A program made the translations under genes and the position numbers. 64,000 nucleotides of DNA from Patescibacteria group bacterium (GTDB taxonomy: Bacteria; Patescibacteriota; Microgenomatia; UBA1400; MFAQ01). The notes beneath the pieces were generated by a model, which saw only the letters and a list, made by a program, of their open reading frames with translations, had not been told where the DNA came from and ran no database searches. Below are positions 38,601 through 62,862 of this stretch, piece by piece (the stretch's first letter is position 1; each line of letters begins with the position of its first letter). The DNA lies in assembly GCA_943355005.1 (NCBI GenBank), contig CALRDV010000001.1, positions 15,410 through 79,409 of the forward strand, given 5' to 3'.

Positions 38601-39403
38601 CTGTTGGTGTTACCGCCGCTCAATCCATTGGAGAGCCTGGTACACAGCTAACCATGCGTACCAAACACTCTGGAGGTGTCGCCGGTGTTGACGTTACTCA
38701 AGGTCTGCCTCGTGTTACCGAACTTTTCGAAGTTCGTCAGCCGAAGCTTGTTGCTCCTATAGCCGAGATTTCAGGCAAGGTTAAAGTTGTCGAAACCGAC
38801 AATGGAAACTTAGTCACCATTACTCCTACAGGCAAGAAAGAAGATCGCAAAGAGTATCTAATTGCTCTGGCTATGCCTCTCAAGGTCGAAGATGGCGATG
38901 TTATCGCTGTTGGAACTCAATTAGCTGCCGGTGGAGTCGATATCAAGGAACTTCTCAAGATCAAAGGCTTAAGAGCTGCTCAGAACTACCTCATTGGAGA
39001 GATTCAGGCCATCTACGAGTCCCAAGGTATTGGTATTCACGACAAACACTTTGAAGTCATCGTCCGCAAGATGTGTGACTACGTCCGCATTGACTCTCTC
39101 GGAGACTCTAGTTTGGTCGCCGGTGATGTCATTAGTCGAGGCAGTTACGAAATGGCTAACGAAGGTGTTATTGCTCAAGGAGGCGAACCTGCTACCGCTA
39201 CAAACCTCATCTTGGGTACCATCCGTGCCGCTTTGCACACTGATTCGTGGCTCTCTGCTGCATCCTTCCAAGATACCACCAGTGTCCTCACCGACGCTGC
39301 TACACAAGGTAAGATCGATCACTTGGTAGGCATGAAAGAGAACGTTATTATTGGTCGCTTGGTTCCTACTAGTAAGTTGCGTGCCAGAATAGAGAATATC
39401 TGA
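35696..39403 (+). CDS. rpoC: DNA-directed RNA polymerase subunit beta'
   Basis: Zn-binding [30 protein letters not shown] catalytic motif. 1235 aa. Confidence 0.95.
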
Positions 39404-39422
39404 TAAAATACACGAGCTAACT

Positions 39423-39845
39423 ATGCCTACAACTAACCAACTAATCAAAAACGGCCGACACAACAGTGTTCGCAAAATTAAAACTACAGCTTTACGCAAA
39501 AGTTTTAACTCCGTCAAACGTCACATGGTCGCTACCATGAGTCCACAAAAAGCCGGTGTCTGTCTTCAAGTAAAGACTATGACTCCCAAGAAGCCTAACT
39601 CCGCTCTGCGTAAGATTGCCCGTGTGCGTCTTTCTAACAAGCAGGAAGTTACCGCTTACATCATGGGTGAAGGTCACAATCTTGCTGAGCACAGCATCGT
39701 CATGATTCGTGGCGGTCGTGTCCGAGATCTTCCTGGTGTTAAGTATCACATTGTTCGAGGTAAGCTCGATACCGGTGGTATCGATAAACGCCGCACTTCC
39801 AGAAGTAAATACGGTACCAAACGTCCTTCAAAAGCTAAAAAGTAA
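39423..39845 (+). CDS. rpsL: 30S ribosomal protein S12
   Basis: [12 protein letters not shown]...[10 protein letters not shown]. Confidence 0.95.
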
Positions 39846-39865
39846 AGAAAAAAACAACCTAACAT

Positions 39866-39899
39866 GTCATTCCCGACCTGATCGGGAATCCATAAAAAT
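39866..39899 (+). repeat. Hairpin repeat GTCATTCCCGACCTGATCGGGAATC + CATAAAAAT, between rpsL and rpsG
   Basis: Same family. Confidence 0.9.
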
Positions 39900-39907
39900 A
39901 AAACAAT

Positions 39908-40384
39908 ATGAGATCAAAGAAAACCCCAGCCAAAACTATTAAACTCGACGCAGTCTTCGGTGACGCTCTTGTTCACAAGATGATCACTGGTGTTATGCAA
40001 GACGGACGCAAGTCGGTCGCTGCCAAACAAGTTTACAAAGCAATTGATCTCGTTGCAGAGCAATCCAAGAAAGACGGTATTGAATTCTTAAACGAAGCTT
40101 TGAATAACATTAAGCCAACCATCGAAGTCCGTTCCCGCCGAGTCGGAGGTGCCTCTTACCAGGTTCCTACCCCTATCCGTCCGGAAAGACGTGATTCCCT
40201 CGCTATCCGTTGGCTCATCAATGCCGCCAAGGCTCGAGGCTCCAATCCTTACCGAACTTTAGCTGACAAGCTCGCTGCCGAAATCATGGAAGCTCATGAA
40301 AATGCCGGAAATGCCATCAAAAAGAAACTAGACACTCACAAAATGGCCGAAGCCAATAAAGCCTTTGCACACTTCCGCTGGTAG
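39908..40384 (+). CDS. rpsG: 30S ribosomal protein S7
   Basis: 158 aa, ...EVRSRRVGGASYQVP..., KMAEANKAFAHFRW. Confidence 0.95.
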   Translation: MRSKKTPAKTIKLDAVFGDALVHKMITGVMQDGRKSVAAKQVYKAIDLVAEQSKKDGIEFLNEALNNIKPTIEVRSRRVGGASYQVPTPIRPERRDSLAIRWLINAAKARGSNPYRTLADKLAAEIMEAHENAGNAIKKKLDTHKMAEANKAFAHFRW

Positions 40385-40391
40385 TCCCTCC

Positions 40392-40433
40392 CAGAGGAGT
40401 CTCCTTGTAGGTAATCCTGCGAGGAGACTCCTC
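40392..40433 (+). other. Long hairpin (11-bp stem GAGGAGTCTCC / GGAGACTCCTC) directly after the rpsG stop
   Basis: No U-tract. Followed 20 nt later by a canonical terminator. Confidence 0.5.
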
Positions 40434-40450
40434 ACATTGGTCCCTATCCC

Positions 40451-40480
40451 AAAAACTCCCGCTTCAGGCGGGATTTTTGG
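40451..40480 (+). terminator. Rho-independent terminator after rpsG (start of island A)
   Basis: CTCCCGC-ttca-GGCGGGA-TTTTTGG. Confidence 0.8.
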
Positions 40481-40497
40481 TATTATAAGACAATATG

Positions 40498-40506
40498 TGA
40501 TATAAT
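40498..40506 (+). promoter_or_regulatory. extended -10 TGaTATAAT + ATCTCC (cassette promoter)
   Basis: T-tract of the upstream terminator abuts the -10. Consensus with other cassettes: TATAATATCCCAGAAC. Confidence 0.5.
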
Positions 40507-40547
40507 ATCTCCAAAGCACATTATCTTAATCTCGATTGGAGGCTATT

Positions 40548-40817
40548 TTGGAAAATAAATTGATTCTTATGCTGGACGAGGGCACTATTGGTCTTATTCT
40601 GCCCGGAGATAAGTTGTTGGTAATCGAATGCAACACAGTTGCCAGCATGGGAAGAATTCCTGAAGATAAGTACTTTATTCACCCCAAAGATTTGGCAAGT
40701 CTCCCTGCGGAAGTTAAAATAGCCATCAACGCCGTATGTGTATCGCATGGCATAACTTCACCTTTTGAGAGGTTTGTCGCAGAATCTTCCGTCAGAAGTC
40801 CAGGATCCTACGATTGA
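40548..40817 (+). CDS. cassette A1: hypothetical small protein (start TTG 40548 after GGAGG; alternatives 40536/40569)
   Basis: GGAGG at 40538-40542, 5 nt before the TTG. Confidence 0.45.
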   Translation: MENKLILMLDEGTIGLILPGDKLLVIECNTVASMGRIPEDKYFIHPKDLASLPAEVKIAINAVCVSHGITSPFERFVAESSVRSPGSYD

Positions 40818-40823
40818 TAAAAT

Positions 40824-40850
40824 AGCACCCTCATCTAGAGGGTGTTTTTA
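40824..40850 (+). terminator. Rho-independent terminator
   Basis: CACCCTC-atcta-GAGGGTG-TTTTT. Immediately followed by TATAAT 40855-40860 + ATCCCAT. Confidence 0.8.
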
Positions 40851-40907
40851 TTGGTATAATATCCCATATAAGTATTGCACGTTCATTCTAAAACCAAGGA
40901 GGTTTCC

Positions 40908-41474
40908 ATGGGAATATTTCAAGGTCATCAAGTTTTGGCTCTTGTTGTTGATATTTTTTGGCCGCTCATTACGGCCATTTCAATTAGGTTTTTAACGAAA
41001 GCTCATACAAGACCAAATCGTAGATTGATGTATTGGGAGCTACCCATTATTTACATTATCATTTTGTTTCTTCCCAACTCGGTATACGCCATGTTGGAAT
41101 TGAAACATTTGTTGATGGTAGATACGGTAGCGGATATTCCAAACATCTGGTCCTTTATTGTTTTTGGCGGAATCTCTCTATTTGGATATCTGGTGACTCT
41201 TTATCAGAATATTCTAATTGCGAATTTTTTTACCAAAACTAAAACAGGCCACATGAAAGCATTTGCTCTTCTATCGATTGTCGGTGGTTTTGGTGGTGTT
41301 GCGGGTCTGTTAAATTTTAATAGTTACGAGGGAATTCTGACCCCACAGGTTTTGTATCTCATTACTAAGATGATTTTTCACCACCCGGTACTGATCGTTC
41401 TTGGAATTGGTGTTTCGGTGTTTATCTTTTTATCTACAGTTTTAGTGCGTCGCATTCAAAAGCCTTCCTCTTAA
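40908..41474 (+). CDS. cassette A2: polytopic membrane protein (188 aa, ~6 TM)
   Basis: SD AAGGAGG at 40896-40902, 5 nt before the ATG. The ORF-track N-extension is discarded. Confidence 0.6.
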   Translation: MGIFQGHQVLALVVDIFWPLITAISIRFLTKAHTRPNRRLMYWELPIIYIIILFLPNSVYAMLELKHLLMVDTVADIPNIWSFIVFGGISLFGYLVTLYQNILIANFFTKTKTGHMKAFALLSIVGGFGGVAGLLNFNSYEGILTPQVLYLITKMIFHHPVLIVLGIGVSVFIFLSTVLVRRIQKPSS

Positions 41475-41491
41475 CAGGAAGGTTTTTTTAT
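41463..41491 (+). terminator. Rho-independent terminator (stop codon in loop)
   Basis: CCTTCC-tcttaaca-GGAAGG-TTTTTTT. Confidence 0.8.
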
Positions 41492-41611
41492 TCCAAGATA
41501 TATCTATACTACAAATAAAATAGGTAGTATATTAATGTCTCTGGAGGAAAAATATAGAATCTACTTGTGTAGTTAAACTTTGTTTCCAAATGTTCTTTAA
41601 AAAGGAGATTA

Positions 41612-42184
41612 ATGAAAAAGACATTTTCTTTTGTGATGATTTCTGTATGTGCAACTCTGCTCATTTCCTGTACCGCAGTATTTTCTTCACTTGGCTACGT
41701 TCCCAGAGCAGATCTGGACGCCGCCACTAAGCAAGTTAGTGATTTAAATACCAAGCTGACTACGGCAAATACCGAGATCGAGAAGTTGAAGACCGGTAAT
41801 GCCGAGAAAGATGTAAAACTCACGGACTATCAAAGCCAAATAACCGAAGCCCAGTCCGACCTTACCAAGATTAAAAATCAGCTTTCTCAATCGGACCTCA
41901 CGCTCGAAGATTGGAAATCACTTCAGTGCGAACAAGACTGGGATATGCTTTGGTACAAAGCCATTTTCAGCTGGCCTCTCACGGATTATTCCAACCTGCC
42001 GGACTACTTTCATTACTATATTGCAGTGACTCAGTGGTCCACCGATCCAAAATGGCAATTGGACGATTCGAAGGCTTTTTCGGTTGTCCTTTTCGATCGG
42101 GATAACGATCAATCCATGGCGATTGACACGGTCAATGACTGTGTGATCTTGAATCCGGATGTGTTCGATTTTTTAGAAAAATAG
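41612..42184 (+). CDS. cassette A3: lipoprotein (lipobox LLISC) with coiled-coil region
   Basis: MKKTFSFVMISVCATLLISC. SD AAGGAG 5 nt upstream. Confidence 0.65.
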   Translation: MKKTFSFVMISVCATLLISCTAVFSSLGYVPRADLDAATKQVSDLNTKLTTANTEIEKLKTGNAEKDVKLTDYQSQITEAQSDLTKIKNQLSQSDLTLEDWKSLQCEQDWDMLWYKAIFSWPLTDYSNLPDYFHYYIAVTQWSTDPKWQLDDSKAFSVVLFDRDNDQSMAIDTVNDCVILNPDVFDFLEK

Positions 42185-42223
42185 ACACGGTGCAAGCCAA
42201 AGCTCCTTCACCCTAATCCATTA

Positions 42224-42250
42224 TCGGCCGCTCACGCGGCCGGTTTTTTA
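42224..42250 (+). terminator. Rho-independent terminator
   Basis: GGCCGC-tcac-GCGGCC-GGTTTTTT. Followed by GAGATAATCACCCCAG, a promoter-like sequence. Confidence 0.8.
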
Positions 42251-42304
42251 TATGAGATAATCACCCCAGTACTTTGACTAAATCTTTTTGTTTAAGGAGA
42301 TCTC

Positions 42305-43765
42305 ATGAAACCCAGTCTCAAATTGCTAGATCACGATCTTGTATTGCGGGTTGTTCGCGAAGCCTTTTCGTTGCTTATGAAGCCGGGAATTAAAGTTCAG
42401 AACTTGGAAGCCCGCCAATTACTTACCTCTGCCGGTGCCACAGTAAACGAAGAAACTCAGGTTGTTCAAATTCCTGAATATGTCGTTCGTCTGGCGCTGA
42501 ACTCGGTTCCTTCAGAATTTTGGCTTTATGATCTGGCCGGGAAACCTACTGTTCACTACGGTGGAGACTCAGTCCACTTTGATCCGGGTTCTTCCGGCAT
42601 CAATATTCTGGATCCGGAAACTCTTGAACATCGTGAAGCTACAACTGCTGACTTGATTCGAATTATCAAAGTCGCCGAAGGTATTCCTCAGTACGACGCC
42701 CAGTCCACTGCCGTCGTCTGTAGCGATGTCCCCCAGGAGATTCAGGATTTGTATCGACTTTATCTCGTCCTTCTTCACTCATCCAAGCCAATTGTTACCG
42801 GCGCATTTTCTAACAAGAACATCGGCAACATGATTGAGATGCTCGCTATCATGTCCGGCAGTGCCGGAAATCTTCGGCGTTATCCTCGAGCTGTCTTTGA
42901 TGTTTGTCCGTCTCCTCCTCTCATCTGGTCAAACTTTGGTGCCGGCAATCTCATGGCTCTCGCTCGAGCCGGTGTTCCGGCCGAAATGATTTCGATGCCC
43001 ATCGCCGGTGCCGCTGCTCCCGTAACCCTTATCGGTTCCGTTGTTCAGCACACGGCCGAGTCGCTCGCCGGCATCGTCATTCATCAGCTGGCCTATCCCG
43101 GTTCTCCCATTGTCTGGGGCGGAGCTCCTGCCATTATGGACATGCGCAAGGGTAGCACTCCCATGGGTGCCATCGAGACTGCCATGATCGATTGTTCATA
43201 CGCCCAGGTTGGTAAATATCTTGGTGTTCCTACCCACACTTATTTGGGAGGAAGTGACGCCAAGTCGGTCGACGCTCAAGCCGGGCTCGAAGGAGCCATG
43301 TCCATTCTCATCGGCGCCCTCAGTGGTGTCAATATGATTTCCGGCGCCGGCATGATCGACTCACTTCTTTGCATGAGTCCGGAAAAGCTGGTTATTGATG
43401 CCGAATCCATTGCTATGGCTCGTCGCATGCTAGTAGGAATGAAAACACCCACAGACACTTTGGCTACCGGATTTTACGAAGGAGTCAATTTTAAAGGCGG
43501 AGATTTCCTTAAGCAGCGCATCACCATGCAACTTTTCCAGCAGGAGCAAAATCTTCCCGGTCGCGTCATCGATCGAGGCTCCACTCGCGAATGGAAAAAT
43601 TCGGGTAAATTGGACACATTTGGCCGGGCCAAGCTCGAAGTCAAAAAGCTTGTGGCTTCGTACCAATATCCAGACCTAAATCTCGCTCGCGAAGCTGCCT
43701 TGCACCACTTTGTCCGCAATCTGGCCAAAAAAGCCGGCGTGACCAATCTCCCGACTCTCGAATAA
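42305..43765 (+). CDS. cassette A4: MttB-superfamily (trimethylamine/glycine-betaine:corrinoid) methyltransferase homolog, no in-frame amber
   Basis: 486 aa. Matches MttB-family blocks: ...HTAESLAGIVIHQLAYPGSPIVWGGAP...GSDAKSVDAQAGLEGAMS...SGAGMIDS...SPEKLVIDAE... SD AAGGAGA. Confidence 0.65.
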   Translation: MKPSLKLLDHDLVLRVVREAFSLLMKPGIKVQNLEARQLLTSAGATVNEETQVVQIPEYVVRLALNSVPSEFWLYDLAGKPTVHYGGDSVHFDPGSSGINILDPETLEHREATTADLIRIIKVAEGIPQYDAQSTAVVCSDVPQEIQDLYRLYLVLLHSSKPIVTGAFSNKNIGNMIEMLAIMSGSAGNLRRYPRAVFDVCPSPPLIWSNFGAGNLMALARAGVPAEMISMPIAGAAAPVTLIGSVVQHTAESLAGIVIHQLAYPGSPIVWGGAPAIMDMRKGSTPMGAIETAMIDCSYAQVGKYLGVPTHTYLGGSDAKSVDAQAGLEGAMSILIGALSGVNMISGAGMIDSLLCMSPEKLVIDAESIAMARRMLVGMKTPTDTLATGFYEGVNFKGGDFLKQRITMQLFQQEQNLPGRVIDRGSTREWKNSGKLDTFGRAKLEVKKLVASYQYPDLNLAREAALHHFVRNLAKKAGVTNLPTLE

Positions 43766-43771
43766 TCATCT

Positions 43772-43804
43772 GTCATTGCGAGCGCTGCGCGGCAATCTAC
43801 CTGC
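43772..43804 (+). repeat. Hairpin repeat GTCATTGCGAGCGCTGCGCGGCAATCTACCTGC
   Basis: Same GTCATTGCGAG...GGCAATCTACCTGC family as 30017/30087. Confidence 0.85.
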
Positions 43805-43821
43805 TATAAAACTTCTCCCTC

Positions 43822-43850
43822 CACCCCGTCTAAACAGCGGGGTTTTTATT
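43822..43850 (+). terminator. Rho-independent terminator
   Basis: CCCCG-tctaaacag-CGGGG-TTTTTATT. Confidence 0.75.
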
Positions 43851-43930
43851 GGCCTATAGTTGATTTACACCCCAGTTTTTGATAGAATACCCCAAAGTTT
43901 AACTCTTTAATAACTAAATGGAGGTGACCC

Positions 43931-44296
43931 GTGTGGCACTCGATTATGCGCTTTTTTAAGTCTTTCGGGAAAAAACCGGTTCAAAAAAAAGATAACGTAG
44001 TTCTTGTGAACATCGATTATCAGCCGGATTTTTTCTTCCTTCCCACTCATTTTTCCGGCAACGACCCGATCAGACAAATTTCAGAACGGGATCTGGATCT
44101 TTTGCTCAGATGGTACTCAGGTGTTCCCTCAACTCCCGATCCGATTTGGGATGCAATTATGCGAGGTGATGAGGAGCGCCCTTTACCGGCAGTTACCGAC
44201 CTGAACCAAGCTATACAAGACATGGAGACAATGTGGCTGAACAAGGGAAATCTCCCTGACGCAGAAATATTCAAAGCCTTCAAACCGGAGATCTAA
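43931..44296 (+). CDS. cassette A5: hypothetical protein (121 aa, GTG start after GGAGGTGA)
   Basis: SD GGAGGT 6 nt upstream. Confidence 0.5.
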   Translation: MWHSIMRFFKSFGKKPVQKKDNVVLVNIDYQPDFFFLPTHFSGNDPIRQISERDLDLLLRWYSGVPSTPDPIWDAIMRGDEERPLPAVTDLNQAIQDMETMWLNKGNLPDAEIFKAFKPEI

Positions 44297-44297
44297 A

Positions 44298-44648
44298 ATG
44301 GATACCGAAGATGTTCTTATACTTCTGGCATTATTATTACTGCTCGTTATCGTTTTCTTGGTAATTGGATTGGGGACCCAAAGTTCCCCCGGTGTAGAAA
44401 AGCTTCCTAATGGACAAATTTTTGTCCCTGACGGTGCAACTCTTCGAGAGTATAACTCCCTGTCAAAAATGTTTTACTCAATCACCCCTCAAGGGGACAC
44501 TGTCACTATCAATCTTATAGTTGATATGAAAGTTAAGCTCTGTGACCCCAATTGCACTAAAGAAGTTTGGACAGGCTTTATTAGTTGGACCTTCGAAAAA
44601 GTCCCGGGAGGCATAAACGTCACCCCTCCATTTGCTTCTGTTCCCTAG
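44298..44648 (+). CDS. cassette A6: signal-anchored small protein (116 aa)
   Basis: Starts 1 nt after the A5 stop. TM LILLALLLLLVIVFLVIGL. Confidence 0.5.
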   Translation: MDTEDVLILLALLLLLVIVFLVIGLGTQSSPGVEKLPNGQIFVPDGATLREYNSLSKMFYSITPQGDTVTINLIVDMKVKLCDPNCTKEVWTGFISWTFEKVPGGINVTPPFASVP

Positions 44649-44671
44649 CTTTAGCCTCGCCTTCACCATCC

Positions 44672-44713
44672 GTCATTGCGAATCTCGTACTCGAGCTGTG
44701 GCAATCTCACTCC
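44672..44713 (+). repeat. Hairpin repeat GTCATTGCGAATCTCGTACTCGAGCTGTGGCAATCTCACTCC
   Basis: Near-identical to the 62948 copy. Contains the nested palindrome CTCGtaCTCGAG. Confidence 0.85.
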
Positions 44714-44716
44714 ACC

Positions 44717-44746
44717 CACCCCGTCTAACCAACGGGGTTTTATTTT
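44717..44746 (+). terminator. Rho-independent terminator
   Basis: CCCCG-tctaaccaa-CGGGG-TTTTATTTTATT. Confidence 0.75.
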
Positions 44747-44747
44747 A

Positions 44748-45041
44748 TTAACACATATCGGCCACCATCGGCATCACCTCAATGCACGGCGTTCCCCAGC
44801 TATGATTCTTCAGAATAAATTCATGTATATCTGTCAATTTAATTTTGGTCGTCTTCAAACTAATCAAAACCACTTCTTCCCCCGAAGCCCCCTTCGGTCC
44901 CGGATACATAAGGAATGTGGGTGTAATCTTCGCCGTGCCACACAGTTCTTTATCCAGCATCTCTTTACAAAGTTTCTCTGCCTCTTTCTTGGTCGGGCAG
45001 GGGATATTGATAACCACCGGATCCATATCACTTATATTCAT
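44748..45041 (-). CDS. cutA: CutA1-like divalent-cation tolerance protein (PII-like fold)
   Basis: ...CGTAKITPTFLMYPGP..EEVVLISLKTT....HSWGTPCIEVMPM parallels the CutA pattern (C..i.p.i.siY.WkG...EeevllllKT...HpYEvPEiialpi). Confidence 0.55.
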   Translation of the reverse strand: MNISDMDPVVINIPCPTKKEAEKLCKEMLDKELCGTAKITPTFLMYPGPKGASGEEVVLISLKTTKIKLTDIHEFILKNHSWGTPCIEVMPMVADMC

Positions 45042-45193
45042 ACCTGTATTTTTTCACCAAGGTCTTTAATAAGCAATCTTTTTATACATGGCGTCATTCG
45101 AGTGATTATGGTAAAATTAGCCTCGTGAATAACTCTCCTTCAGTGGGGAGGTTTAATTCGTCAAAATAATTAATCAATAACCAATAACCAAAA

Positions 45194-55041: not shown

Positions 55042-55042
55042 T

Positions 55043-55988: not shown

Positions 55989-55993
55989 AACAT

Positions 55994-56338
55994 ATGAACA
56001 AATTTTTAACCGCCCAACAATCCAGAGCCAATCGCATTCGTGCTAAGCTTCTTGCTACCACGACAAGACCACGCTTAACTGTCGATCGTTCCAACTCCAA
56101 CATCTTTGCTCAAATCCTTGATCAAAGTGGCAAGGTCATTGTCGCTCTTGGTTCTCAAGGGATGAAAGATTTCAAAGGCACCAAAACTGAAATGGCAAGT
56201 GTCGTTGGTAAAAAGCTTGGCGAAATGGCAAAAGATAAAAAAGTTTCCACTGTCGTTTTCGATCGTGGTTCCTACCGTTTCCATGGCCGCGTCAAAGCTT
56301 TAGCTGAAGGCGTTCGCGAATCAGGCATTAAATTCTAA
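55994..56338 (+). CDS. rplR: 50S ribosomal protein L18
   Basis: ...RPRLTVDRSNSNIFAQILD... 114 aa. Confidence 0.93.
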   Translation: MNKFLTAQQSRANRIRAKLLATTTRPRLTVDRSNSNIFAQILDQSGKVIVALGSQGMKDFKGTKTEMASVVGKKLGEMAKDKKVSTVVFDRGSYRFHGRVKALAEGVRESGIKF

Positions 56339-56361
56339 TCACTAAACAAAAAACAAAAAAC

Positions 56362-56880
56362 ATGGCATACGCAGGTAACACAAATAATTCTAATAGAGGC
56401 GGCGGTCGACCGGCTCCCGAAGGTTTCGAGCAAGTTCTCGAGATTCGACGTGTGAGTAAGAAGACCCAAGGTGGTACAAATGTGTCATTCTCGGCTCTAG
56501 TTGTTACCGGAGACAAAAAAGGTAAAGTCGGTCTTGGTTTGGCCAAAGCCCCGAACGTTGCCGATGCTATCAAAAAAGCTATCCGTCTTAGTAATCGCGA
56601 TCTGGTCCAGGTTCCTTTAGTTGACGGTACCATTCCTTACGAAACTAAATCCAAATACGGCGCTTCCAAAGTTCTTTTCCGACCCGCTCCCAAAGGCACA
56701 GGCATCATTGCCGGTTCCTCAGTCCGAGCCGTCGTCGAAGCTGCCGGAGTTACCGACATTGTTTGTAAGGTTCTAGGAACCAACAATAAGACCAGTAACG
56801 CCCGTGCTACTTTCAAAGCCCTTAAACAAATCGAAGTTCTAGCCAAGAAATATCAAATGCTTAAAGCCGCCCGCGCTTAA
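56362..56880 (+). CDS. rpsE: 30S ribosomal protein S5
   Basis: ...EIRRVSKKTQGGTNVSFSALVVTGDKKGKVGLGLAKA... Confidence 0.95.
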   Translation: MAYAGNTNNSNRGGGRPAPEGFEQVLEIRRVSKKTQGGTNVSFSALVVTGDKKGKVGLGLAKAPNVADAIKKAIRLSNRDLVQVPLVDGTIPYETKSKYGASKVLFRPAPKGTGIIAGSSVRAVVEAAGVTDIVCKVLGTNNKTSNARATFKALKQIEVLAKKYQMLKAARA

Positions 56881-56894
56881 AACCAATAAAACCT

Positions 56895-57344
56895 ATGATG
56901 TTACTTTCAAACCTCCCCAAGCTTTCCAAAACCCCCAAGAAGAGACTCGGTCGTGGCTTCGGCTCCGGCGTCGGTGGTCACACTGTCGGTCGTGGTCAAA
57001 AAGGTCAAAAGACCCGTGGCGTCATGCCTCTTTGGTTCGAAGGTGGACAGCTCCCTTTGGTTCGACGTACTCCTTTCATCAAAGGTAAACACCGCTTCCA
57101 GGTCATCAAGCTCCAGCCCATTACCGTCAACTTCGATCGTTTGGACAAGTTTGAAGCCAATTCCGTCATTGATCCTCTTTTCTTAGCTACAGCCCTCAAG
57201 GTCAGCGAGAAAGAAGCCAAACGTGGCTTCAAGATCATCGCGACAGGTAAGCTCACCAAAGCCCTTCAGGTGGCCGTTCCAGCCTCTGCAGGCGCCATCA
57301 AAGCCATAGAAGCAGCCGGCGGCAAAGTCCTCACCTCCAAGTAA
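56895..57344 (+). CDS. rplO: 50S ribosomal protein L15 (no rpmD/L30 between rpsE and rplO)
   Basis: LSKTPKKRLGRGFGSGVGGHTVGRGQKGQKTRG. Confidence 0.95.
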   Translation: MMLLSNLPKLSKTPKKRLGRGFGSGVGGHTVGRGQKGQKTRGVMPLWFEGGQLPLVRRTPFIKGKHRFQVIKLQPITVNFDRLDKFEANSVIDPLFLATALKVSEKEAKRGFKIIATGKLTKALQVAVPASAGAIKAIEAAGGKVLTSK

Positions 57345-57396
57345 TTCTAAAAGGCTAGTTGAGCCTGTTTATAGTATTGAACTATAGGAAATTTTG

Positions 57397-57405
57397 TGAT
57401 ATAAT
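57397..57405 (+). promoter_or_regulatory. extended -10 TGaTATAAT (cassette B1 promoter)
   Basis: GTGATATAATCCACG. Same word as the island A promoter at 40498. Confidence 0.5.
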
Positions 57406-57451
57406 CCACGCATCGTTTAGAACGCCCACATTCACAAAAAAGGAGGGCATC

Positions 57452-58168
57452 ATGCCCAGTTATGTCGAAAAATTTCGCTTAGACCATCTAATATCCATGC
57501 TCAGACAGGCTCGTGGAGATATTTTTGCCATCATCTCGGCAATCGCCGAGTATGAGCTTTGGCACCAGGACTACCTTGAGCGCAATGCTCAGGCCGCTTC
57601 CGTACGGAAGCAGTATCTTCAAGGTTTCGAAGAAGATATGGCTCAGTTGACCCGTGCCGACTTTCAGCACCCCACGGCGGGGACTCACGCCGTAGATGGC
57701 CAATTGGCTGTTGGTGGAGAGTCTGAACTTGATGGGTTTGATCTTCTCCAGCCAATTAAGGGTGATCGTGTTCCGAATCCAGATTACCCGGAATCCTGCA
57801 GTATTGGGTCAGATGGATGGACGGCAGCTGCGTTTTCGGGGCGGACTCCTCGTATCGTCCCATTCGATTCCGAGAACGATGATGTGTGGGAGATGGAGGA
57901 GCCAGCTGAAGATGTAGATTGGGACGAGCTTGCCTTTGTCTTTAGGCAGGTTGGTTTCGACACAAGACAGCTGTACGGCATCACCAACATCTCTGATATC
58001 CATATCGATTATCATCGGCGCGGTCTCGCTGTACTCCCAAAGGGCGCACGTCACAATTCACCTCTCGGTCGCGAAACCTGGGAAGATCGGTTTGTCGCTG
58101 AGATACGTGAAAGCGCATCGAAAAACAACTGGCACCCCTGGCTGATCGGCACCAACTTGTTCGAATGA
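57452..58168 (+). CDS. cassette B1: hypothetical acidic protein (238 aa)
   Basis: SD AAGGAGGG 57440-57447, 4 nt before the ATG. The ORF-track N-extension is discarded. Confidence 0.6.
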   Translation: MPSYVEKFRLDHLISMLRQARGDIFAIISAIAEYELWHQDYLERNAQAASVRKQYLQGFEEDMAQLTRADFQHPTAGTHAVDGQLAVGGESELDGFDLLQPIKGDRVPNPDYPESCSIGSDGWTAAAFSGRTPRIVPFDSENDDVWEMEEPAEDVDWDELAFVFRQVGFDTRQLYGITNISDIHIDYHRRGLAVLPKGARHNSPLGRETWEDRFVAEIRESASKNNWHPWLIGTNLFE

Positions 58169-58175
58169 TCCCAAA

Positions 58176-58205
58176 CCACACCCTAACCGGTGTGGTTTTT
58201 ATTTT
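58176..58205 (+). terminator. Rho-independent terminator
   Basis: CCACACC-ctaacc-GGTGTGG-TTTTTATTTT. Followed by TATAAT (58211-58216) ATCCTAGAACATT. Confidence 0.8.
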
Positions 58206-58260
58206 AGTAGTATAATATCCTAGAACATTGTAATTCTATCTATTGCTTAGGAGGCAACTT

Positions 58261-58683
58261 ATGTTTAGTTTAAGTCTGTTGGGAACGGCCACAGACAATC
58301 ATTCGGCTTACCTGGTTCGACCAGGAATGATGAACGGCGCCTTACATTTCTTTCATGAAATTAAGTGGGTCGAGTTCGAAGGGCTGAGGGTGAACGGAGA
58401 TTGGGGACAAGCCAGGTTTGTTTCTTCGAATATTGTCGGCAGTCATATCTATCAGCTGACCGAATTAACATCCGAAGATCCGGAGAAGCTCGAGATGACC
58501 GAGTTCCACATCGCCATCCACTTCTCATCCGCCACCCCCCAAGAAGCCTCTGAGGCTATATTGGACTGGGCAATTCACTCTGGCGCCAGTGAAGGCGCCA
58601 CCATTGAACCGGCCAACGCAGAAGGAACCAAATGGTTCATATGTTTACCGGCATTGTTCAAGTTCAGTCTCGAGATCGTCTAA
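58261..58683 (+). CDS. cassette B2: hypothetical protein (140 aa), possibly VOC/glyoxalase-like fold
   Basis: SD AGGAGG 58249-58254. The VOC resemblance (…GTKWFICLP..FKFSLEIV) is weak. Confidence 0.55.
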   Translation: MFSLSLLGTATDNHSAYLVRPGMMNGALHFFHEIKWVEFEGLRVNGDWGQARFVSSNIVGSHIYQLTELTSEDPEKLEMTEFHIAIHFSSATPQEASEAILDWAIHSGASEGATIEPANAEGTKWFICLPALFKFSLEIV

Positions 58684-58686
58684 TTC

Positions 58687-58718
58687 AAATCCACTCTATA
58701 TAGGGTGGATTTTTATTT
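58687..58718 (+). terminator. Rho-independent terminator
   Basis: ATCCAC-tctatatagg-GTGGAT-TTTTATTTT. Followed by TATAAT (58726-58731) ACCCCAGAACGTT. Confidence 0.8.
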
Positions 58719-58778
58719 TCTGATGTATAATACCCCAGAACGTTTCTAGAAAAACAACACTTTGAAATCGGAGGAAAT

Positions 58779-59162
58779 ATGAGCTTTACACCCCAAAATG
58801 CTTTAGGGAAAGCAAATTCTAATTTACAGGGAACCGAATTTTTTCTTGGAGCCAAAAGAGCACTCGGTGAAAAATTTACTAAAGCCGATGTCTTTATCCT
58901 CCTTATTGCACGAATTAAGGAAATTTTAAGCTTTAAGGATGGTCGGGATGAAAAATGGCTGGGCATGTTAAAAGATGCAATCAATCAAAACATGACCTCG
59001 GCGCTGAAGGAATATTTATCAAATCAGATAGAATATCTTCGAACATCCAATCCTGATTACGAAATATTGATCTTGACTCCTGCACTTGTAAGCCTTTCTT
59101 TTAGTTCAAATTTAGATCCATATCTTCTTCTCGGACTAGAAGAGTTCTACAAAACCCTCTAG
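58779..59162 (+). CDS. cassette B3: hypothetical protein (127 aa)
   Basis: SD GGAGG 6 nt upstream. Confidence 0.55.
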   Translation: MSFTPQNALGKANSNLQGTEFFLGAKRALGEKFTKADVFILLIARIKEILSFKDGRDEKWLGMLKDAINQNMTSALKEYLSNQIEYLRTSNPDYEILILTPALVSLSFSSNLDPYLLLGLEEFYKTL

Positions 59163-59167
59163 GCACT

Positions 59168-59196
59168 CGCCCACCTTCACCGGTGGGTTTTTTATT
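59168..59196 (+). terminator. Rho-independent terminator
   Basis: CCCACC-ttcacc-GGTGGG-TTTTTTATT. Followed by TATAAT (59205-59210) ATCCCAGAACATT. Confidence 0.8.
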
Positions 59197-59242
59197 ATGG
59201 GTGTTATAATATCCCAGAACATTAAATTAAGGAGGTTAGATA

Positions 59243-59611
59243 ATGGAAACCATAGAAACGATCCAATTTGTTATTGAGCTCATTGGCAGTGTATTTAAGA
59301 TTGTTCAGATGGCAATTCATCTGGTTTTTGTCGGCATCGTTACTCTATTCCGTCCCGGTTCCGATAAAGAGTGGCGCCAGGCATGGATGTGGGTTGTCTT
59401 CCCGGTATTTTTTGTGGGAGGCTTCGGCATCCTCGTCTCATGGTTAATCCACTACATATTTGCTTTGCTGGGATTTACTCTTCTGGGTTGGATTCTGATA
59501 TTGATCTGGCTATTTTACTTTTGGGTTGGTGAGCCATTTATGTATATTACCTACCCGGAGTATGAAATTAACCGCGAGGAGAAATCTCATTGGATCGACA
59601 CCGGCGAATAA
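59243..59611 (+). CDS. cassette B4: small membrane protein (122 aa, 3 TM)
   Basis: SD AAGGAGG. Co-transcribed with B5 (no terminator between them). Confidence 0.55.
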   Translation: METIETIQFVIELIGSVFKIVQMAIHLVFVGIVTLFRPGSDKEWRQAWMWVVFPVFFVGGFGILVSWLIHYIFALLGFTLLGWILILIWLFYFWVGEPFMYITYPEYEINREEKSHWIDTGE

Positions 59612-59627
59612 ATCTCTGGAGGTAAAA

Positions 59628-60074
59628 ATGTTCAAATCTCTTAGTGAACAGATCGACGATGCACTTGCAAACCTTACGATACTTGAACTTCGTATCGGTC
59701 ACGCACGTCAATCTGGGACAATGCTTACGAAAGAAAAATTGTTTGAGTACTTGATGGCCTGGGCTAATTATCGTAATTTCTTTGCTCTTTCGCATTACCG
59801 CCATGAATCAAAATGGAGTGGCATTATTCTCGATTGCCAAGCAAAGATCATGACCCAACAGTTAAAGGACTTTCTCAAAGAAATCAAAGATAATCTCGAA
59901 GCTCGCATCCCACCTACCGAAAGAATCGTTTTGGGGTACAAACCAATCGATGTTCTTCACCCTCTCCCGGCCGCCATTTCCGTTAGCAACATACTAGTTG
60001 AAAACGAAAAGCTATTTACGACTTTGCCACTCCTACTGTTGGCACTTATCGAAATATCTGACTCCAACACATAG
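59628..60074 (+). CDS. cassette B5: hypothetical protein (148 aa)
   Basis: SD GGAGGT 59618-59623. Internal start chosen from the longer ORF 59526. Confidence 0.5.
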   Translation: MFKSLSEQIDDALANLTILELRIGHARQSGTMLTKEKLFEYLMAWANYRNFFALSHYRHESKWSGIILDCQAKIMTQQLKDFLKEIKDNLEARIPPTERIVLGYKPIDVLHPLPAAISVSNILVENEKLFTTLPLLLLALIEISDSNT

Positions 60075-60100
60075 CCCACCACCCGGTGGGTTTTTTTGTT
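60073..60100 (+). terminator. Rho-independent terminator
   Basis: CCCACC-accc-GGTGGG-TTTTTTT. Followed by TACAAT (60100-60105). Confidence 0.8.
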
Positions 60101-60138
60101 ACAATTTCAGTGAACTTTCAAATTTAGATTGGAGACAC

Positions 60139-60483
60139 ATGATTACTCATGTCAAAATTAGAGCACCTTTCGACCACGTTGACGGACAGACTTTTTATGT
60201 CACACCGGAATTAAAAGAAAAAATATTTATTCTTGGTGCAACTCTCGTGCTTGATCACAACAATTTTTGTATGATTACGCCTGAGGGTGAAGTGGTAAGA
60301 ACAAAGTGGACCGTAGTCGAAGTTATTTCCGACAGACCTACCGGCTACAATGATCGCAAAATGGTTCGAGATATCGTAGGTGGCTTAATAGCTGTTAGTT
60401 CCATCGGACGAGCTTCTTGGGGACAAATATCTATAAAATTCTTTGAAGGGTTGGTTTTTTTCAACGAAGAAGAGGTTGTTTAG
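60139..60483 (+). CDS. cassette B6: hypothetical protein (114 aa)
   Basis: SD GGAGA 5 nt upstream. Internal start of ORF 59998. Confidence 0.5.
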   Translation: MITHVKIRAPFDHVDGQTFYVTPELKEKIFILGATLVLDHNNFCMITPEGEVVRTKWTVVEVISDRPTGYNDRKMVRDIVGGLIAVSSIGRASWGQISIKFFEGLVFFNEEEVV

Positions 60484-60492
60484 TGAGATTAC

Positions 60493-60521
60493 AAACCCAC
60501 AATTATCTGTGGGTTTTTTTA
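60493..60521 (+). terminator. Rho-independent terminator
   Basis: ACCCACA-attatc-TGTGGGT-TTTTTTT. Followed by TATAAT 60522-60527. Confidence 0.8.
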
Positions 60522-60535
60522 TATAATATCGCCTG

Positions 60536-60859
60536 GTGTTCAAAAACGAAACTATTTTTACCAAAGCGGTACTAACTGCCAAAAATCATATTGCCCGGTC
60601 AGAGGAGGGATTTCTTCTCTTGTCTAAAGATCGGTCATTGTCTGAAATGTCCACTCCCATCACAGGTCTTACATCTGAGGAAACCTTGGAAAGAAGAACT
60701 GACTTTTTAGAATTTATTAATCAAATGAATGAAGATGGTCTCAGAAATCATTTAGCTATGGTTGAACACCAAATAGACGTTGCCCTTAGTCGGCCAATTC
60801 AAGGAACTTCCGAACTGTATTGGCAGAGAATTGTTATACTGGATAGACTAGCCTCTTAA
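60536..60859 (+). CDS. cassette B7: hypothetical protein (107 aa; GTG start 9 nt after the -10, probably leaderless; start uncertain)
   Basis: No SD. TATAAT 60522-60527. Confidence 0.4.
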   Translation: MFKNETIFTKAVLTAKNHIARSEEGFLLLSKDRSLSEMSTPITGLTSEETLERRTDFLEFINQMNEDGLRNHLAMVEHQIDVALSRPIQGTSELYWQRIVILDRLAS

Positions 60860-60907
60860 AGGAAAACTTCTAAAGTAAGTTTGAACTGATAGAATAGTAC
60901 TCACGAT

Positions 60908-62188
60908 ATGAATAATATATTAGCTCCTCTGCGTGCCTTGTTCAAAATTAAAGACCTCCGTAACCGTATTCTTTTTACAGCCGGAGTTATTTTATTATTC
61001 CGTTTGGTCGCCCACATTCCTACACCTGGCATAAATTTAGACGCTCTCAAGAATCTTTTTAATAGTTCTGCTTTTCTTTCTCTTTTGGACGTATTCTCAG
61101 GCGGAACCTTGACGAATTTTTCCGTCATGGCTCTCGGACTGAACCCTTATATCAACGCCTCCATTATCATGCAAATGCTTGGCATGGTAGTTCCGTCTTT
61201 GGAAGCGCTCCAGAAAGAAGGGGACTATGGTCGCCAAAAAATTAATCAATACACACGTCTACTTACCATTCCCCTAAGTTTCCTTCAGGGCATCGCTCTA
61301 ATTTTTCTACTTCGCAACCAGGGGCTTACGACCACAGCAGACCCTCTTAAGCTGGCCTCAATTGTCTTCACTCTAGCCGCCGGCACCTCATTCCTCATTT
61401 GGCTTGGCGAACAGCTAAATGAATACGGTGTTGGAAATGGAATTAGTCTGATTATCTTTGTCGGTATCGTTAGTCGTCTCCCGGTCGCCGCCGCACAGAC
61501 AATTGCCACCATCGATCCTTCCAAAATATTTGTATACCTCATCTTCTTATTCTTTGCCATTGCTTCGATCTACGCTATCGTTCGCGTTGGTGAAGCTGTC
61601 CGCGAAGTTCCCATTCAGTCCGCCCGCCGTGGAGCTTCCTTTACCTCTACTGTCGGCAATCATTTGCCACTCAAGCTCAATCAAGCCGGCGTCATCCCAA
61701 TCATCTTTGCCGTTTCCTTTATGTTAATTCCAAATTTACTAGGTCGGGTCTTTGCCTCATCCACTCAACCATTTTTATCCGGTTTTTCTCACACAGTAAC
61801 TACTTATTTGGCGCCCGATACCATTCTATATAATGCCCTCTATTTTGGCCTTGTTGTTGCCTTCTGTTATTTTTATACCGCCGTTGTCTTCAATCCGGAA
61901 AAAATCGCCAAAGATCTTCGTTCTTCCGGTTCCTTTATTCCCGGAGTCCGTCCTGGTCCCAATACTGTCGACTACTTAAACTTTGTTTTAAATCGCATTA
62001 CTTTAGTCGGAGCTTCCTTCTTAGGTTTAGTCGCCATCTTCCCTTCAATCGTTTCAGGTATGACAGGGATTGCTGGACTAGCTATTGGTGGTACAGGCAT
62101 TCTCATCGTCGTCTCGGTCGTTCTGGAAATTTTGAAAACAGTGAACTCTCAGCTCTACATGTACAGTTACGACAAATTTTTAGATTAA
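60908..62188 (+). CDS. secY: preprotein translocase subunit SecY
   Basis: 10 TM. ...[14 protein letters not shown]..., 426 aa. Confidence 0.95.
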
Positions 62189-62193
62189 CTTTC

Positions 62194-62226
62194 GTCATTC
62201 CGACCGTAGTGGAGGAATCTCACTCC
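62194..62226 (+). repeat. Hairpin repeat GTCATTCCGACCGTAGTGGAGGAATCTCACTCC right after the secY stop
   Basis: Same as the 5523 and 22842 copies. Confidence 0.85.
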
Positions 62227-62249
62227 AAATATTAAAATTTTAATTAAGT

Positions 62250-62283
62250 GTCATTCCCGACCTGATCGGGAATCTATATAAAT
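62250..62283 (+). repeat. Hairpin repeat GTCATTCCCGACCTGATCGGGAATC + TATATAAAT, 10 bp upstream of adk
   Basis: Identical core. Confidence 0.9.
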
Positions 62284-62292
62284 TAATTCACT

Positions 62293-62862
62293 ATGAACAT
62301 AATCATTCTCGGACCCCAAGGGTCAGGCAAAGGCACACAGGCAAAGTTATTAGCCGAAAAATACGGCTTAACGAATATTTCTTCAGGTAAACTCCTCCGT
62401 GAATTTGCCAAAGGCGACTCTGAGAAAGCCAAGCTGATTGCCGATCTTCTCACTACCGGGGCACTTCTTCCTTTCGACACTGTCATGGAAGTCATTGAAC
62501 CCGCTATGGTTGGATCCAAATCTGGCTTTATTCTGGACGGTAGTCCAAGAGATCTTATGCAAGCCGAATATCTTGATTGGTTTTTGGGCGAGCGCCACAT
62601 TACTATTGATAAAGTCATTCATATCGATATTCCTCGTGAGGAAAGTTTAAATCGGCTGGCCAAAAGAGCCATCACTGAAAATCGTTCCGACGATACCCCG
62701 GATGCTATTCACGAAAGATTGGATATTTACGAGAAAGATACTATGCCTGTCATAGACTACTATCGCAAGCAAGGCAAAATGATCGATGTCGACGGCGTTG
62801 GTGAAGTCCCAGAGATTTTTAACGCCATCATCTCCAAGCTCGAAGTGTCATCCCGAGCGTAG
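62293..62862 (+). CDS. adk: adenylate kinase. Last five codons and stop (VSSRA*) are supplied by a hairpin repeat
   Basis: IIILGPQGSGKGTQAK P-loop. No zinc-lid Cys. Element GTCATCCCGAGCGTAG overlaps 62847-62862. Confidence 0.93.
   Translation: MNIIILGPQGSGKGTQAKLLAEKYGLTNISSGKLLREFAKGDSEKAKLIADLLTTGALLPFDTVMEVIEPAMVGSKSGFILDGSPRDLMQAEYLDWFLGERHITIDKVIHIDIPREESLNRLAKRAITENRSDDTPDAIHERLDIYEKDTMPVIDYYRKQGKMIDVDGVGEVPEIFNAIISKLEVSSRA

Follow-up and report, generated by a model that had tools for sequence, protein, structure and literature searches.

The subject of this analysis is the distribution of Shine-Dalgarno (SD) motifs across a 64,000-nt stretch of DNA (contig CALRDV010000001.1, positions 15,410 to 79,409; hereafter, the window), in which ribosomal protein (r-protein) operons are interrupted by two islands of small genes. 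The upstream part of the window encodes dnaJ, nusA, infB, rpsO, pnp, RNase J, ftsK, alaS, a sortase, ruvX, yceG, rpoB, and rpoC, and these are followed by rpsL-rpsG, fusA-tuf, the S10/spc genes, secY, adk, and map. Island 1 lies at the rpsG|fusA junction (J1) and island 2 at the rplO|secY junction (J2). Neither a tRNA nor an Rfam match at the gathering threshold was found in the window. The rplB protein was 81–90% identical to that of ~26 metagenome-assembled genome (MAG) loci, of which all informatively labelled ones are Candidatus Collierbacteria, compared to 60–64% identity to Gottesmanbacteria, Woesebacteria, and other Microgenomates and ~55% to Lachnospiraceae. In addition, rplO directly follows rpsE with no L30 gene between them, and a missing L30 is a signature of the candidate phyla radiation (CPR) (PMC9297842). 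Judging by these comparisons, the window belongs to the chromosome of a Candidatus Collierbacteria member (Microgenomates, CPR). The methyltransferase of the ORF at 42305-43765 is encoded in identical form on the source contig, the 223-kb ENA metagenome contig ERZ27280309:k141_147785.

We scored SD strength as the duplex energy between the 20 nt upstream of each start and 5'-ACCUCCUUA-3', an assumed canonical anti-SD rather than one read from the host's own 16S; Rfam and motif searches found no 16S or other rRNA in the window or in ~1.5 Mb of fetched loci. About 19 kb of the contig beyond the window was included in the scoring. A first-pass annotation had described strong SDs at ten island starts and none at the core genes, and both observations held up. 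All ten starts carried an SD-like motif at a 3–6-nt spacer (−6.4 to −12.9 kcal/mol); nine fell between −8.7 and −12.9 kcal/mol, and the tenth, at 60139, had GGAG only (−6.4). By contrast, the core genes named as lacking an SD (24 r-protein and elongation factor genes, rpoB, rpoC, secY, adk, map, nusA, infB, and dnaJ) scored +2.2 to −3.1. When all starts in the window were scored, with the canonical anti-SD assumed, 12 of 14 island open reading frames (ORFs) were SD-led, compared to 5 of 68 elsewhere (Fisher p = 6e-9). Two of these island ORFs were additional to the ten, starting at 40548 (TTG, with GGAGG at a 5-nt spacer) and 44298 (GGAG). The distribution of duplex energies over window starts was bimodal, and SD-led genes totaled 17 of ~82, with the motif 2–7 nt before the start.

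The remaining five SD-led ORFs, which had gone unmentioned in the annotation, lie outside the islands on the minus strand (starts at 1800, 14355, 13904, 13239, and 23578, that at 13904 being weak), and none has a Pfam or NCBIfam match. Because these orphans lie elsewhere, the split follows gene class and not only the two islands. In the flanking 19 kb, we counted another three SD-led orphans, of which two lie between map and infA and the third precedes RNase HII; no SD was found on the flanking housekeeping genes rpsT, murJ, lepA, hrcA, grpE, dnaK, infA, rpsM/K/D, rpoA, rplQ/M, and rpsI. Across 83 kb, SD-led genes therefore make up ~20% of the total (20/~105), all of them accessory orphans apart from the methyltransferase gene mttB, which is also the only one with a Pfam match. 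No recognizable housekeeping gene in the window or the flank had a functional SD. The near-SDs on core genes did not look functional: pnp has only AAGGA, the motif at the ORF at 9452 overlaps a terminator, and the GAGGT of yceG abuts its ATG.

The SD-less core genes surround the islands on the plus strand. rpsL and rpsG (39423..40384) flank island 1; fusA, tuf, and the S10/spc r-protein genes, L30 excepted (45194..57344), lie between the islands; and secY, adk, and map (60908..63751) flank island 2. The genes of the middle block have A-rich, G-depleted upstream regions and very open starts. Across Collierbacteria core genes, A occurs at 78% at position −7, 70% at −6, and 66% at −3 and is also enriched at −2, and G reaches only 3–7% from −9 to −1. 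Part of this A-richness consists of the TAA stops of closely abutting upstream genes; the r-protein genes are spaced 1–25 nt apart. Predicted folding energy at r-protein starts was −1.4 kcal/mol, compared to −8.4 kcal/mol for internal windows. SD-led starts (−4.6 kcal/mol) and other core starts (−4.1 kcal/mol) folded alike, leaving only the r-protein genes to stand out, so folding does not separate the SD-led from the SD-less class. Several operon-first core genes (ruvX, an AAA ATPase at 9839, ftsK, alaS, and cca in the relative's locus L085) have a −10 box 6–10 nt before the start and, standing directly behind it, are probably in part leaderless. As a test for leaderless starts, the −10-to-start distances in relatives were no more than suggestive, since the loci are mostly operon interiors and orthologous positions enter the count repeatedly. 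An SD is also missing where the spacer before a core gene is longer (RNase J, fusA, tuf, rplC, and dnaK). Within the otherwise tight S10 operon, the rpsJ-rplC spacer is unusually long (178 nt, 48915-49092) and contains no ORF or Rfam match.

Island 1 (40385..45193, plus strand) consists of five plus-strand transcription units and a minus-strand cutA1-family gene (44748..45041) without an SD; six of its seven ORFs are SD-led. The first cassette (40501..40846) has a predicted −10 box TATAAT at 40501-40506, the SD GGAGG at 40538-40542, an ORF encoding an 89-aa orphan (40548-40817, from TTG), and a terminator at 40824-40846. The second (40855..41474) has TATAAT, followed by ATCCC, at 40855-40860, the SD AAGGAGGT at 40896-40903, and an ORF (40908-41474) whose 188-aa product has five transmembrane-like segments by hydropathy and a weak DUF1361 match. 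In the third (41555..42244), TAGAAT at 41555-41560 and AAGGAG at 41602-41607 precede an ORF (41612-42184) for a 190-aa protein with a lipoprotein-like N-terminus and a coiled coil, and a terminator follows at 42223-42244; a homologue with an SD occurs in L085. The fourth (42256..43843) carries mttB, an uninterrupted ORF (42305-43765) for an mttB-family methyltransferase (Pfam MTTB, 1e-87), with GATAAT at 42256-42261, the SD TAAGGAG at 42293-42299, and a terminator at 43823-43843. The fifth (43883..44738) is bicistronic, with TAGAAT at 43883-43888 and the SD GGAGGTGA at 43920-43927 before an ORF from GTG (43931-44296), then a weak SD (GGAG, 44287-44290) before a second ORF (44298-44648), and a terminator at 44718-44738. 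At the island's edges, a near-perfect 18-nt inverted repeat (GAGGAGTCTCCTTGTAGG / CCTGCGAGGAGACTCCTC, 40394-40433) directly follows the rpsG stop, ahead of the first island 1 terminator, and a comparable hairpin lies just before fusA (45133-45151) and is conserved in L085.

Island 2 (57345..60907, plus strand) contains six transcription units with seven ORFs, of which six are SD-led and one is leaderless-looking. Its first cassette (57400..58198) encodes a 238-aa orphan (ORF 57452-58168), with TATAAT at 57400-57405, AAGGAGG at 57440-57446, and a terminator at 58173-58198. The next two follow the same plan: 58211..58712 has TATAAT(ATCCT) at 58211-58216, AGGAGG at 58249-58254, an ORF for 140 aa (58261-58683), and a terminator at 58687-58712, and 58726..59188 has TATAAT(ACCCC) at 58726-58731, GGAGG at 58770-58774, an ORF for 127 aa (58779-59162), and a terminator at 59169-59188. 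A bicistronic cassette (59205..60092) starts with TATAAT(ATCCCAGAACATT) at 59205-59210 and the SD TAAGGAGGT at 59228-59236, which leads a 122-aa membrane protein ORF (59243-59611); the second ORF (59628-60074, 148 aa) has its own SD, GGAGGT at 59618-59623, and the terminator lies at 60073-60092. The cassette at 60100..60516 has TACAAT at 60100-60105, the weak GGAG at 60131-60134, an ORF for 114 aa (60139-60483), and a terminator at 60493-60516. In the last (60522..60859), TATAAT at 60522-60527 is separated by 8 nt from the GTG of a 107-aa ORF (60536-60859) with no SD. The L005 orthologue, 83% identical with a dN/dS of 0.07, likewise shows TATAAT, 8 nt, and ATG in succession, and because this layout recurs, the 60536 ORF is probably leaderless.

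A typical unit thus opens with a TAnAAT −10 box (in many cases TATAAT and then ATCCC), continues through an AU-rich leader of 25–45 nt that contains the SD and through one or two ORFs, and closes with a GC-rich hairpin and T-run. A −10 box (TAnAAT or GATAAT) lies 32–51 nt upstream of 11 of the 17 SD-led window starts, and the other six include downstream cassette cistrons. Across loci, TATAAT was found upstream of 23/53 SD-led compared to 6/576 SD-less regions. Terminators of the hairpin and T-run type stand behind most units (those beginning at 40824, 42223, 43823, 44718, 58173, 58687, 59169, 60073, and 60493), and a terminator scan returned 13–15 per region against ~6 in shuffled sequence. 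The cassette proteins are mixed, including polytopic membrane proteins, proteins with a single N-terminal hydrophobic segment or lipoprotein-like N-terminus, and soluble ones. An AlphaFold2 model of the 238-aa orphan, built from a two-sequence alignment, was unusable (pLDDT 47, pTM 0.25).

The SD-led orphans outside the islands are similarly arranged on the minus strand. One (1375..1839) has TAGAAT at 1834-1839, GGAGG at 1806-1810, and a 141-aa ORF (1800-1375). A three-gene operon (12985..14408) has GATAAT at 14403-14408 and ORFs at 14355-13924 (SD AGGAG), 13904-13272 (weak GGAG, 2-nt spacer), and 13239-12985 (SD AAGGAGGT). Another (23123..23619) has TATAAT at 23614-23619, GGAGG at 23584-23588, and a 151-aa ORF (23578-23123). 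Past the window end, a third break in the r-protein supercluster (map|infA, at 11460-13093 of L082) holds two SD-led orphans, with GGAGGagaaATG and AGGAGGcaatatTTG. The SD-led orphan before RNase HII (L082, 18850) has TATAATATCCC, and a 2182-aa ORF with no Pfam match on record lies downstream of RNase HII, from 19929 onward.

The SD split recurs in every close Collierbacteria relative examined. For 25 core genes, whose starts in relatives were fixed by orthology and not by motif, only 0–6% had an SD across 32 Collierbacteria loci, with a median duplex energy of ~0 kcal/mol. By contrast, 22–57% of core genes in most other Microgenomates and CPR loci had an SD (median −3 to −6 kcal/mol), including tuf in 15/15, rpsS in 14/15, and rpsE in 11/15, and in Lachnospiraceae and related Clostridia, this rose to 71–95% (median −8 to −12 kcal/mol). 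Because other Microgenomates loci retain these SDs, Collierbacteria lost the core-gene SD after their split from SD-using relatives. In the close clade, defined by an rplB identity of 81% or more, an SD led 34 of 69 ORFs at the junctions compared to 20 of 592 in the flanks (p = 5e-24), and several of those 20 are junction genes whose flank fell off the locus. The contrast between SD-less core genes and SD-led cassettes was seen in >25 independent genomes. We also note that the loci of a more distant Collierbacteria clade (L028-L032 and L034), some of ~50% GC, have inserts at both junctions and SD-less core genes. Further away, a locus with rplB 59% identical (L065), from a MAG labelled “uncultured Gammaproteobacteria” that is probably a mislabelled CPR genome, had an SD on 5% of the same core genes; this would be SD loss, either independent or shared. 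Our literature search found no paper on SD usage in Collierbacteria, and the SD-scarce CPR lineages described there are only Parcubacteria, Absconditabacteria, and Peregrinibacteria lacking CCUCC (PMC9297842, PMC10783764).

All Collierbacteria loci that show both flanks carry inserts of 1.2–3.6 kb at J1 and 0.6–3.1 kb at J2, with mostly unrelated cargo. By contrast, the rplO|secY spacer is 50–205 nt in all other lineages fetched, and the rpsG|fusA gap is 28–136 nt in four of six distant CPR loci showing both flanks (L066, L067, L077, and L081). Even the closest mttB-bearing relative (MttB 88% identical) differs from the window, as its mttB is followed by a CCA-adding enzyme, two orphans, and fusA. 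Given that every locus of the clade carries inserts and that their cargo varies to this degree, the junctions are long-lived hotspots of gene turnover and not one-off insertions. Some J1 inserts (L011, L012, L014, L019, L020, L023, and L026, and L085 at 2641-4527) encode a DEAH-box helicase (~685 aa) or a CCA-adding enzyme, both SD-less; in L085, cca has TATAAT 7 nt before its ATG and is probably leaderless. Since these two genes sit in J1 without an SD and downstream cassette cistrons have one, the presence of an SD follows gene class rather than position.

Several of the cassette families recur at the same junctions in other Collierbacteria. Homologues of the 188-aa protein (40908; 32–37% identity) lie in or beside J1 of L003, L004, L018, and L023, with strong SDs on four and a weaker one (−6.5) in L003. 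The 238-aa orphan (57452) had a single relative among 1.84 billion representative proteins. At 33% identity, it is again in J2 of another Collierbacteria contig, SD-led, and its neighbor there is 34% identical to the 58261 protein. Every ORF in J2 of this contig has an SD, and the leader ATCCCAGAACATTCAAAAT is common to several of them. The 58261 protein has SD-led homologues of 34–55% identity in L004, L008, and L088, each inside J2 or adjoining it. Searches with two of the families (i1a and i2a) gave no homologue outside Collierbacteria-looking contigs, and the few relatives either share the junction or come from short unplaced contigs. When L088/L089 were compared to the window at 57452-58683, i2a and i2b were only 29–34% identical, compared to 93% for rplO, 85% for secY, and 77% for adk. 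At a fixed locus, this pattern suggests extreme divergence or replacement by distant alleles, and diversifying selection. Yet the orthologues of mttB, i1a, i2a, and i2b keep their SDs even though synonymous divergence is saturated (dS >1.2; dN/dS 0.07–0.26). Because unselected 5–8-nt motifs would not persist at such divergence, the cassette SDs are under purifying selection, which would in turn imply a usable anti-SD.

Some known architectures resemble these arrays. Phage “morons” (the Hendrix/Juhala concept) are extra genes with their own promoter and terminator, placed between genes that are adjacent in related genomes. Like morons, the cassettes have their own −10 box, leader, ORF, and terminator, separate genes that are adjacent in related lineages, and vary in cargo. 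Unlike morons, they lie on a cellular chromosome inside an r-protein superoperon, form arrays of five to seven units at the same junctions clade-wide, and have typical GC; cassette proteins gave no PHROG matches beyond coiled-coil noise. Integron cassettes, which are usually promoterless, and chromosomal gene-flux hotspots flanked by conserved core genes are also comparable. As in these systems, the junctions are fixed, the genes are small, mostly of no assigned function, and co-oriented, and the conserved flanks could anchor recombination. However, here the str and spc r-protein operons are interrupted, and each cassette has its own promoter. An integron or other mobile-element reading was rejected, as no recombinase domain (intI included) was found in the island ORFs or their neighbors, there are no attI/attC-like repeats, and the structures between cassettes are only terminator hairpins followed by −10 boxes.

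A separate repeat is also scattered through the window. The hairpin TGTCATTCCCGAcctGATCGGGAATC has ~10 plus-strand copies, and 12 matches at no more than one mismatch were found compared to 1.4 expected. Exact copies lie at 2006, 12868, 16710, 30065, 39880, 53945, and 62264, copies with one mismatch at 18747, 29058, and 35657, and a variant at 62906. Apart from the copy at 29058, which is inside an ORF, they occupy intergenic spacers, including the core-operon spacers rpoB|rpoC, rpsL|rpsG, rplN|rplX, and secY|adk. After several of the copies comes TATA(T)AAA. In relatives, the repeat is nearly absent (a single copy in each of L005, L025, and L034). It has the look of an element of the repetitive extragenic palindrome or miniature inverted-repeat transposable element type that expanded recently, or else of a signal for RNA processing or attenuation. 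Next to the copy at 18747 lies a minus-strand ORF (18763-19023, 86 aa) for a small, free-standing GIY-YIG nuclease domain.

What we observed, then, are two start classes, their recurrence across the clade, the anatomy of the cassettes, turnover at the hotspots, and the persistence of SDs on orthologues. The explanation that we favor, and hold to be somewhat better than an even bet, is that two initiation modes coexist in this lineage and are split by gene class, with an SD-less core and an SD-led flexible pool. Conserved housekeeping genes would have lost their SD and would start behind A-rich, G-depleted, unstructured sequence, often within a few bases of the preceding TAA, through open A-rich starts, re-initiation after nearby stops, and sometimes leaderless mRNA. 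The flexible pool would comprise small, fast-evolving, lineage-restricted genes plus the ancient mttB, kept as self-contained units of promoter, leader, SD, ORF, and terminator at breakpoints that recur where one core transcription unit gives way to the next (rpsG|fusA, rplO|secY, map|infA, and a small number of others). The SD and the shared promoter and leader could provide portable, context-independent ribosome recruitment to genes whose turnover or divergence is too rapid for a tuned SD-independent start to evolve. Homologous recombination, with the highly conserved r-protein genes on either side as anchors, would probably be the route by which the cassettes are exchanged.

The first-pass annotation had left the choice between a distinct translational regime and a recent horizontal origin of the islands. 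The former was borne out to the extent that the pattern recurs in relatives and the SD is kept on orthologues, whereas recent horizontal origin found support for mttB only. MttB is 69–72% identical to Anaerolineales/Chloroflexi proteins, far above vertical expectation, compared to 72–88% among Collierbacteria. In Chloroflexi, mttB occurs in multi-copy clusters (L084) whose genes carry SDs. By protein identity, mttB was clearly transferred between phyla into this CPR lineage. The Collierbacteria orthologues, however, have a dS of 1.2–2.7 and a dN/dS of 0.07–0.14, and the SD is kept in L006, L010, L015, L018, and L085, in versions that each stand behind a native-type promoter (TAAGGAG, GAGGAGG, TGGAGGT, and AAAGGAGG). 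On these sequence distances, the transfer is old and preceded the divergence of several Collierbacteria species. It may also hint at physical association with Chloroflexi. No corrinoid-protein partner of mttB was seen in the island.

As a general account, recent transfer would mean that island genes still carry the ribosome-binding sites and codon usage of SD-using donors and are not yet adapted, which we consider unlikely. Besides mttB, such an account could draw on the junction cargo, which differs even between close relatives, and on the lack of detectable relatives for most cassette proteins, which would be possible with an unsampled donor pool such as CPR phages. The codon data are more equivocal. 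The codons said to mark the island genes were CGG, GGG, and AGG; relative to other core genes, CGG was indeed raised ~5-fold and GGG ~2-fold, but AGG was not (2.0 vs. 2.5 per thousand). Median G at third codon positions fell from 0.22 for SD-led genes through 0.14 for the other core genes to 0.11 for r-protein genes (both steps p ~5e-4). Because the shift extends the gradient from r-protein to other core genes, as expected of weakly expressed genes, weak translational selection explains it at least as well as foreign origin. Moreover, median GC did not differ between SD-led and core genes (0.436 vs. 0.444, p = 1.0), and four families at the same junction elsewhere keep their SD despite saturated synonymous divergence and so are not recent. 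The promoter and leader motifs also look native: a −10 box plus an ATCCC discriminator is common to cassettes and the core gene ruvX (30135), and the leader ATCCCAGAACATT(CAAAAT) recurs before unrelated cassettes and in other Collierbacteria. A metagenome pattern search gave 7/120 matches with the full layout of TAnAAT, leader, SD, and start, three of the seven mapping to J2, and the rest of the matches were mostly chance. No integrase or recombinase, tRNA, flanking direct repeat, att-like repeat, mobility domain, or phage protein was found at the islands. A phage origin of the promoter-leader module was rejected, as 15-mer matches in viral contigs were at chance level; two viral 19-mer matches were also discarded, since the contigs are 26% and 37% GC, have no SD after the motif, and share no similarity with window proteins.

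A second alternative is that the SD-led cassettes form the regulon of one ribosome state or life stage (e.g., host attachment), through an anti-SD that can be switched. The model for this comes from Bacteroidia, where initiation is SD-independent, the anti-SD is sequestered by bS21/bS18/bS6, upstream adenines are favored, and an SD is kept on rpsU (Jha et al. 2021, PMC7797042; McNutt et al. 2023, PMC9976891). In Flavobacteriia, bS21 gates the anti-SD, and ribosomes free of bS21 gain SD-led translation (PMC7797042, PMC9976891). Collierbacteria resemble Bacteroidia in their lineage-wide absence of core SDs, including every r-protein gene (0/24 r-protein and elongation factor genes in the window), their A-rich, G-depleted upstream regions, their open r-protein starts, a minority of strong SDs, and clade-specific loss with SD-keeping sisters. 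Many cassettes also share a conserved leader upstream of the SD, a possible regulatory handle, and several cassette proteins are membrane or secreted proteins. However, Collierbacteria belong to a different phylum (CPR/Microgenomates), and the adenine positions (−7, −6, −3, and −2) differ from those published for Bacteroidia, with TAA stops contributing part of the signal. Their SDs are not confined to a few regulatory genes (rpsU, prfB) and sit on accessory orphan cassettes rather than on a ribosomal autoregulatory gene. The SD-led share, at ~20% of genes, is also far above the ~3% of B. ovatus, one of the GeneMarkS-2 group B genomes (PMC6028130). In the literature (PMC9297842), a lost anti-SD motif is described for a Parcubacteria subgroup alone, and Collierbacteria are said to lack bS21 frequently. 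That absence is compatible with SD-led translation on bS21-free ribosomes, but it also argues against sequestration by bS21/bS18/bS6 in this lineage. With ribosome heterogeneity drawn by analogy from Bacteroidia, and with a shared leader that could be no more than promoter-proximal sequence carried along when cassettes duplicated or recombined, we regard the regulon as a doubtful reading of the whole pattern.

According to a third alternative, mRNA architecture alone would account for the split: only leadered cistrons that recruit free 30S subunits would need an SD, and core genes would be leaderless or re-initiated. The −10 boxes upstream of SD-led starts, the tight packing of r-protein genes with their TAA-fed A-rich profile, and the −10 boxes close to several operon-first core starts all fit this. 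A comparable mixture is found in GeneMarkS-2 groups C and X, where leaderless first genes coexist with SDs on other genes (PMC6028130). Our window shares with group C the presence of several start signals in one genome, including some first cistrons with a −10 box 6–10 nt from the start. By contrast, internal operon genes have an SD in group C, whereas internal core-operon genes lack one here, and the split runs between core and accessory genes. In addition, downstream cistrons of cassette operons carry SDs (13239, 44298, and 59628), and the core genes behind longer spacers, which are probably leadered, do not. The same tightly packed r-protein genes also carry SDs in other Microgenomates, and therefore packing alone does not remove SDs. 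Architecture is thus insufficient by itself, though contributing, and stands as a distinctly improbable full explanation.

Finally, we tested and rejected an artefact of start choice or chance motif matches, which is barely credible. Starts were set by ORF logic, so that picking SD-adjacent ones could inflate counts, and three calls are weak (13904, 44298, and 60139, GGAG only). However, a gene-call-free listing of GGAGG/AGGAG found 14 plus-strand sites 3–11 nt before a start whose ORF runs to 120 aa or more; 9 of these are cassette starts in the two islands, and the other 5 fall within long core ORFs, with no called start to match. Independent gene calls recorded for the contig agree with the starts used, and core starts set by orthology show the same contrast in those >25 genomes.

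Several points weigh against the coexistence of two initiation modes as we describe it. The data come to no more than ~83 kb for this genome plus ~20 kb for each relative and are centered throughout on the r-protein region. Because a functional host anti-SD is itself inferred, with ACCUCCUUA assumed to be canonical, SD function is inferred as well. The promoters, terminators, and leaderless starts are consensus-level predictions from sequence. In the distant clade (rplB ~70% identical), only 1/19 junction ORFs was SD-led; with junction ORFs there mostly SD-less, SD-led cassettes are not a feature of the whole candidate phylum. The motifs AAGGA and GAGG are depleted inside core coding sequences (z ~ −3.8), but control motifs vary as much. 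The shift toward G-ending codons fits a foreign origin as well as weak translational selection. Lastly, searches of Pfam, PHROGs, PADLOC, and NCBIfam gave no functional assignment for the orphan cassette proteins, returning only coiled-coil noise (41612).

An old question for SD-poor lineages is why they keep an anti-SD once their genes stop using SDs, and the answer from Bacteroidia is that a few autoregulatory genes need it. Here, a CPR lineage appears to purge the SD from its conserved genes while selecting strong SDs on about one-fifth of its genes, those that are fast-evolving and flexible. This offers a natural within-genome contrast for asking what the SD is good for. It also yields an annotation rule for CPR metagenomes, in which a single ribosome-binding-site model would mis-set the starts of one class, and it identifies conserved hotspots inside r-protein operons as the place where this clade keeps its strain-specific genes. 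A more speculative extension, which we put forward only tentatively, is that one ribosome population could serve two possibly separately controllable initiation channels, one working without the SD for the conserved proteome and one dependent on the anti-SD for the cassette proteins with their common promoter/leader module, so that access to the anti-SD would tune a hypervariable, strain-specific repertoire, perhaps for host interaction. If true, this repertoire would be tunable through the anti-SD in a lineage that reportedly lacks the bS21 gate.

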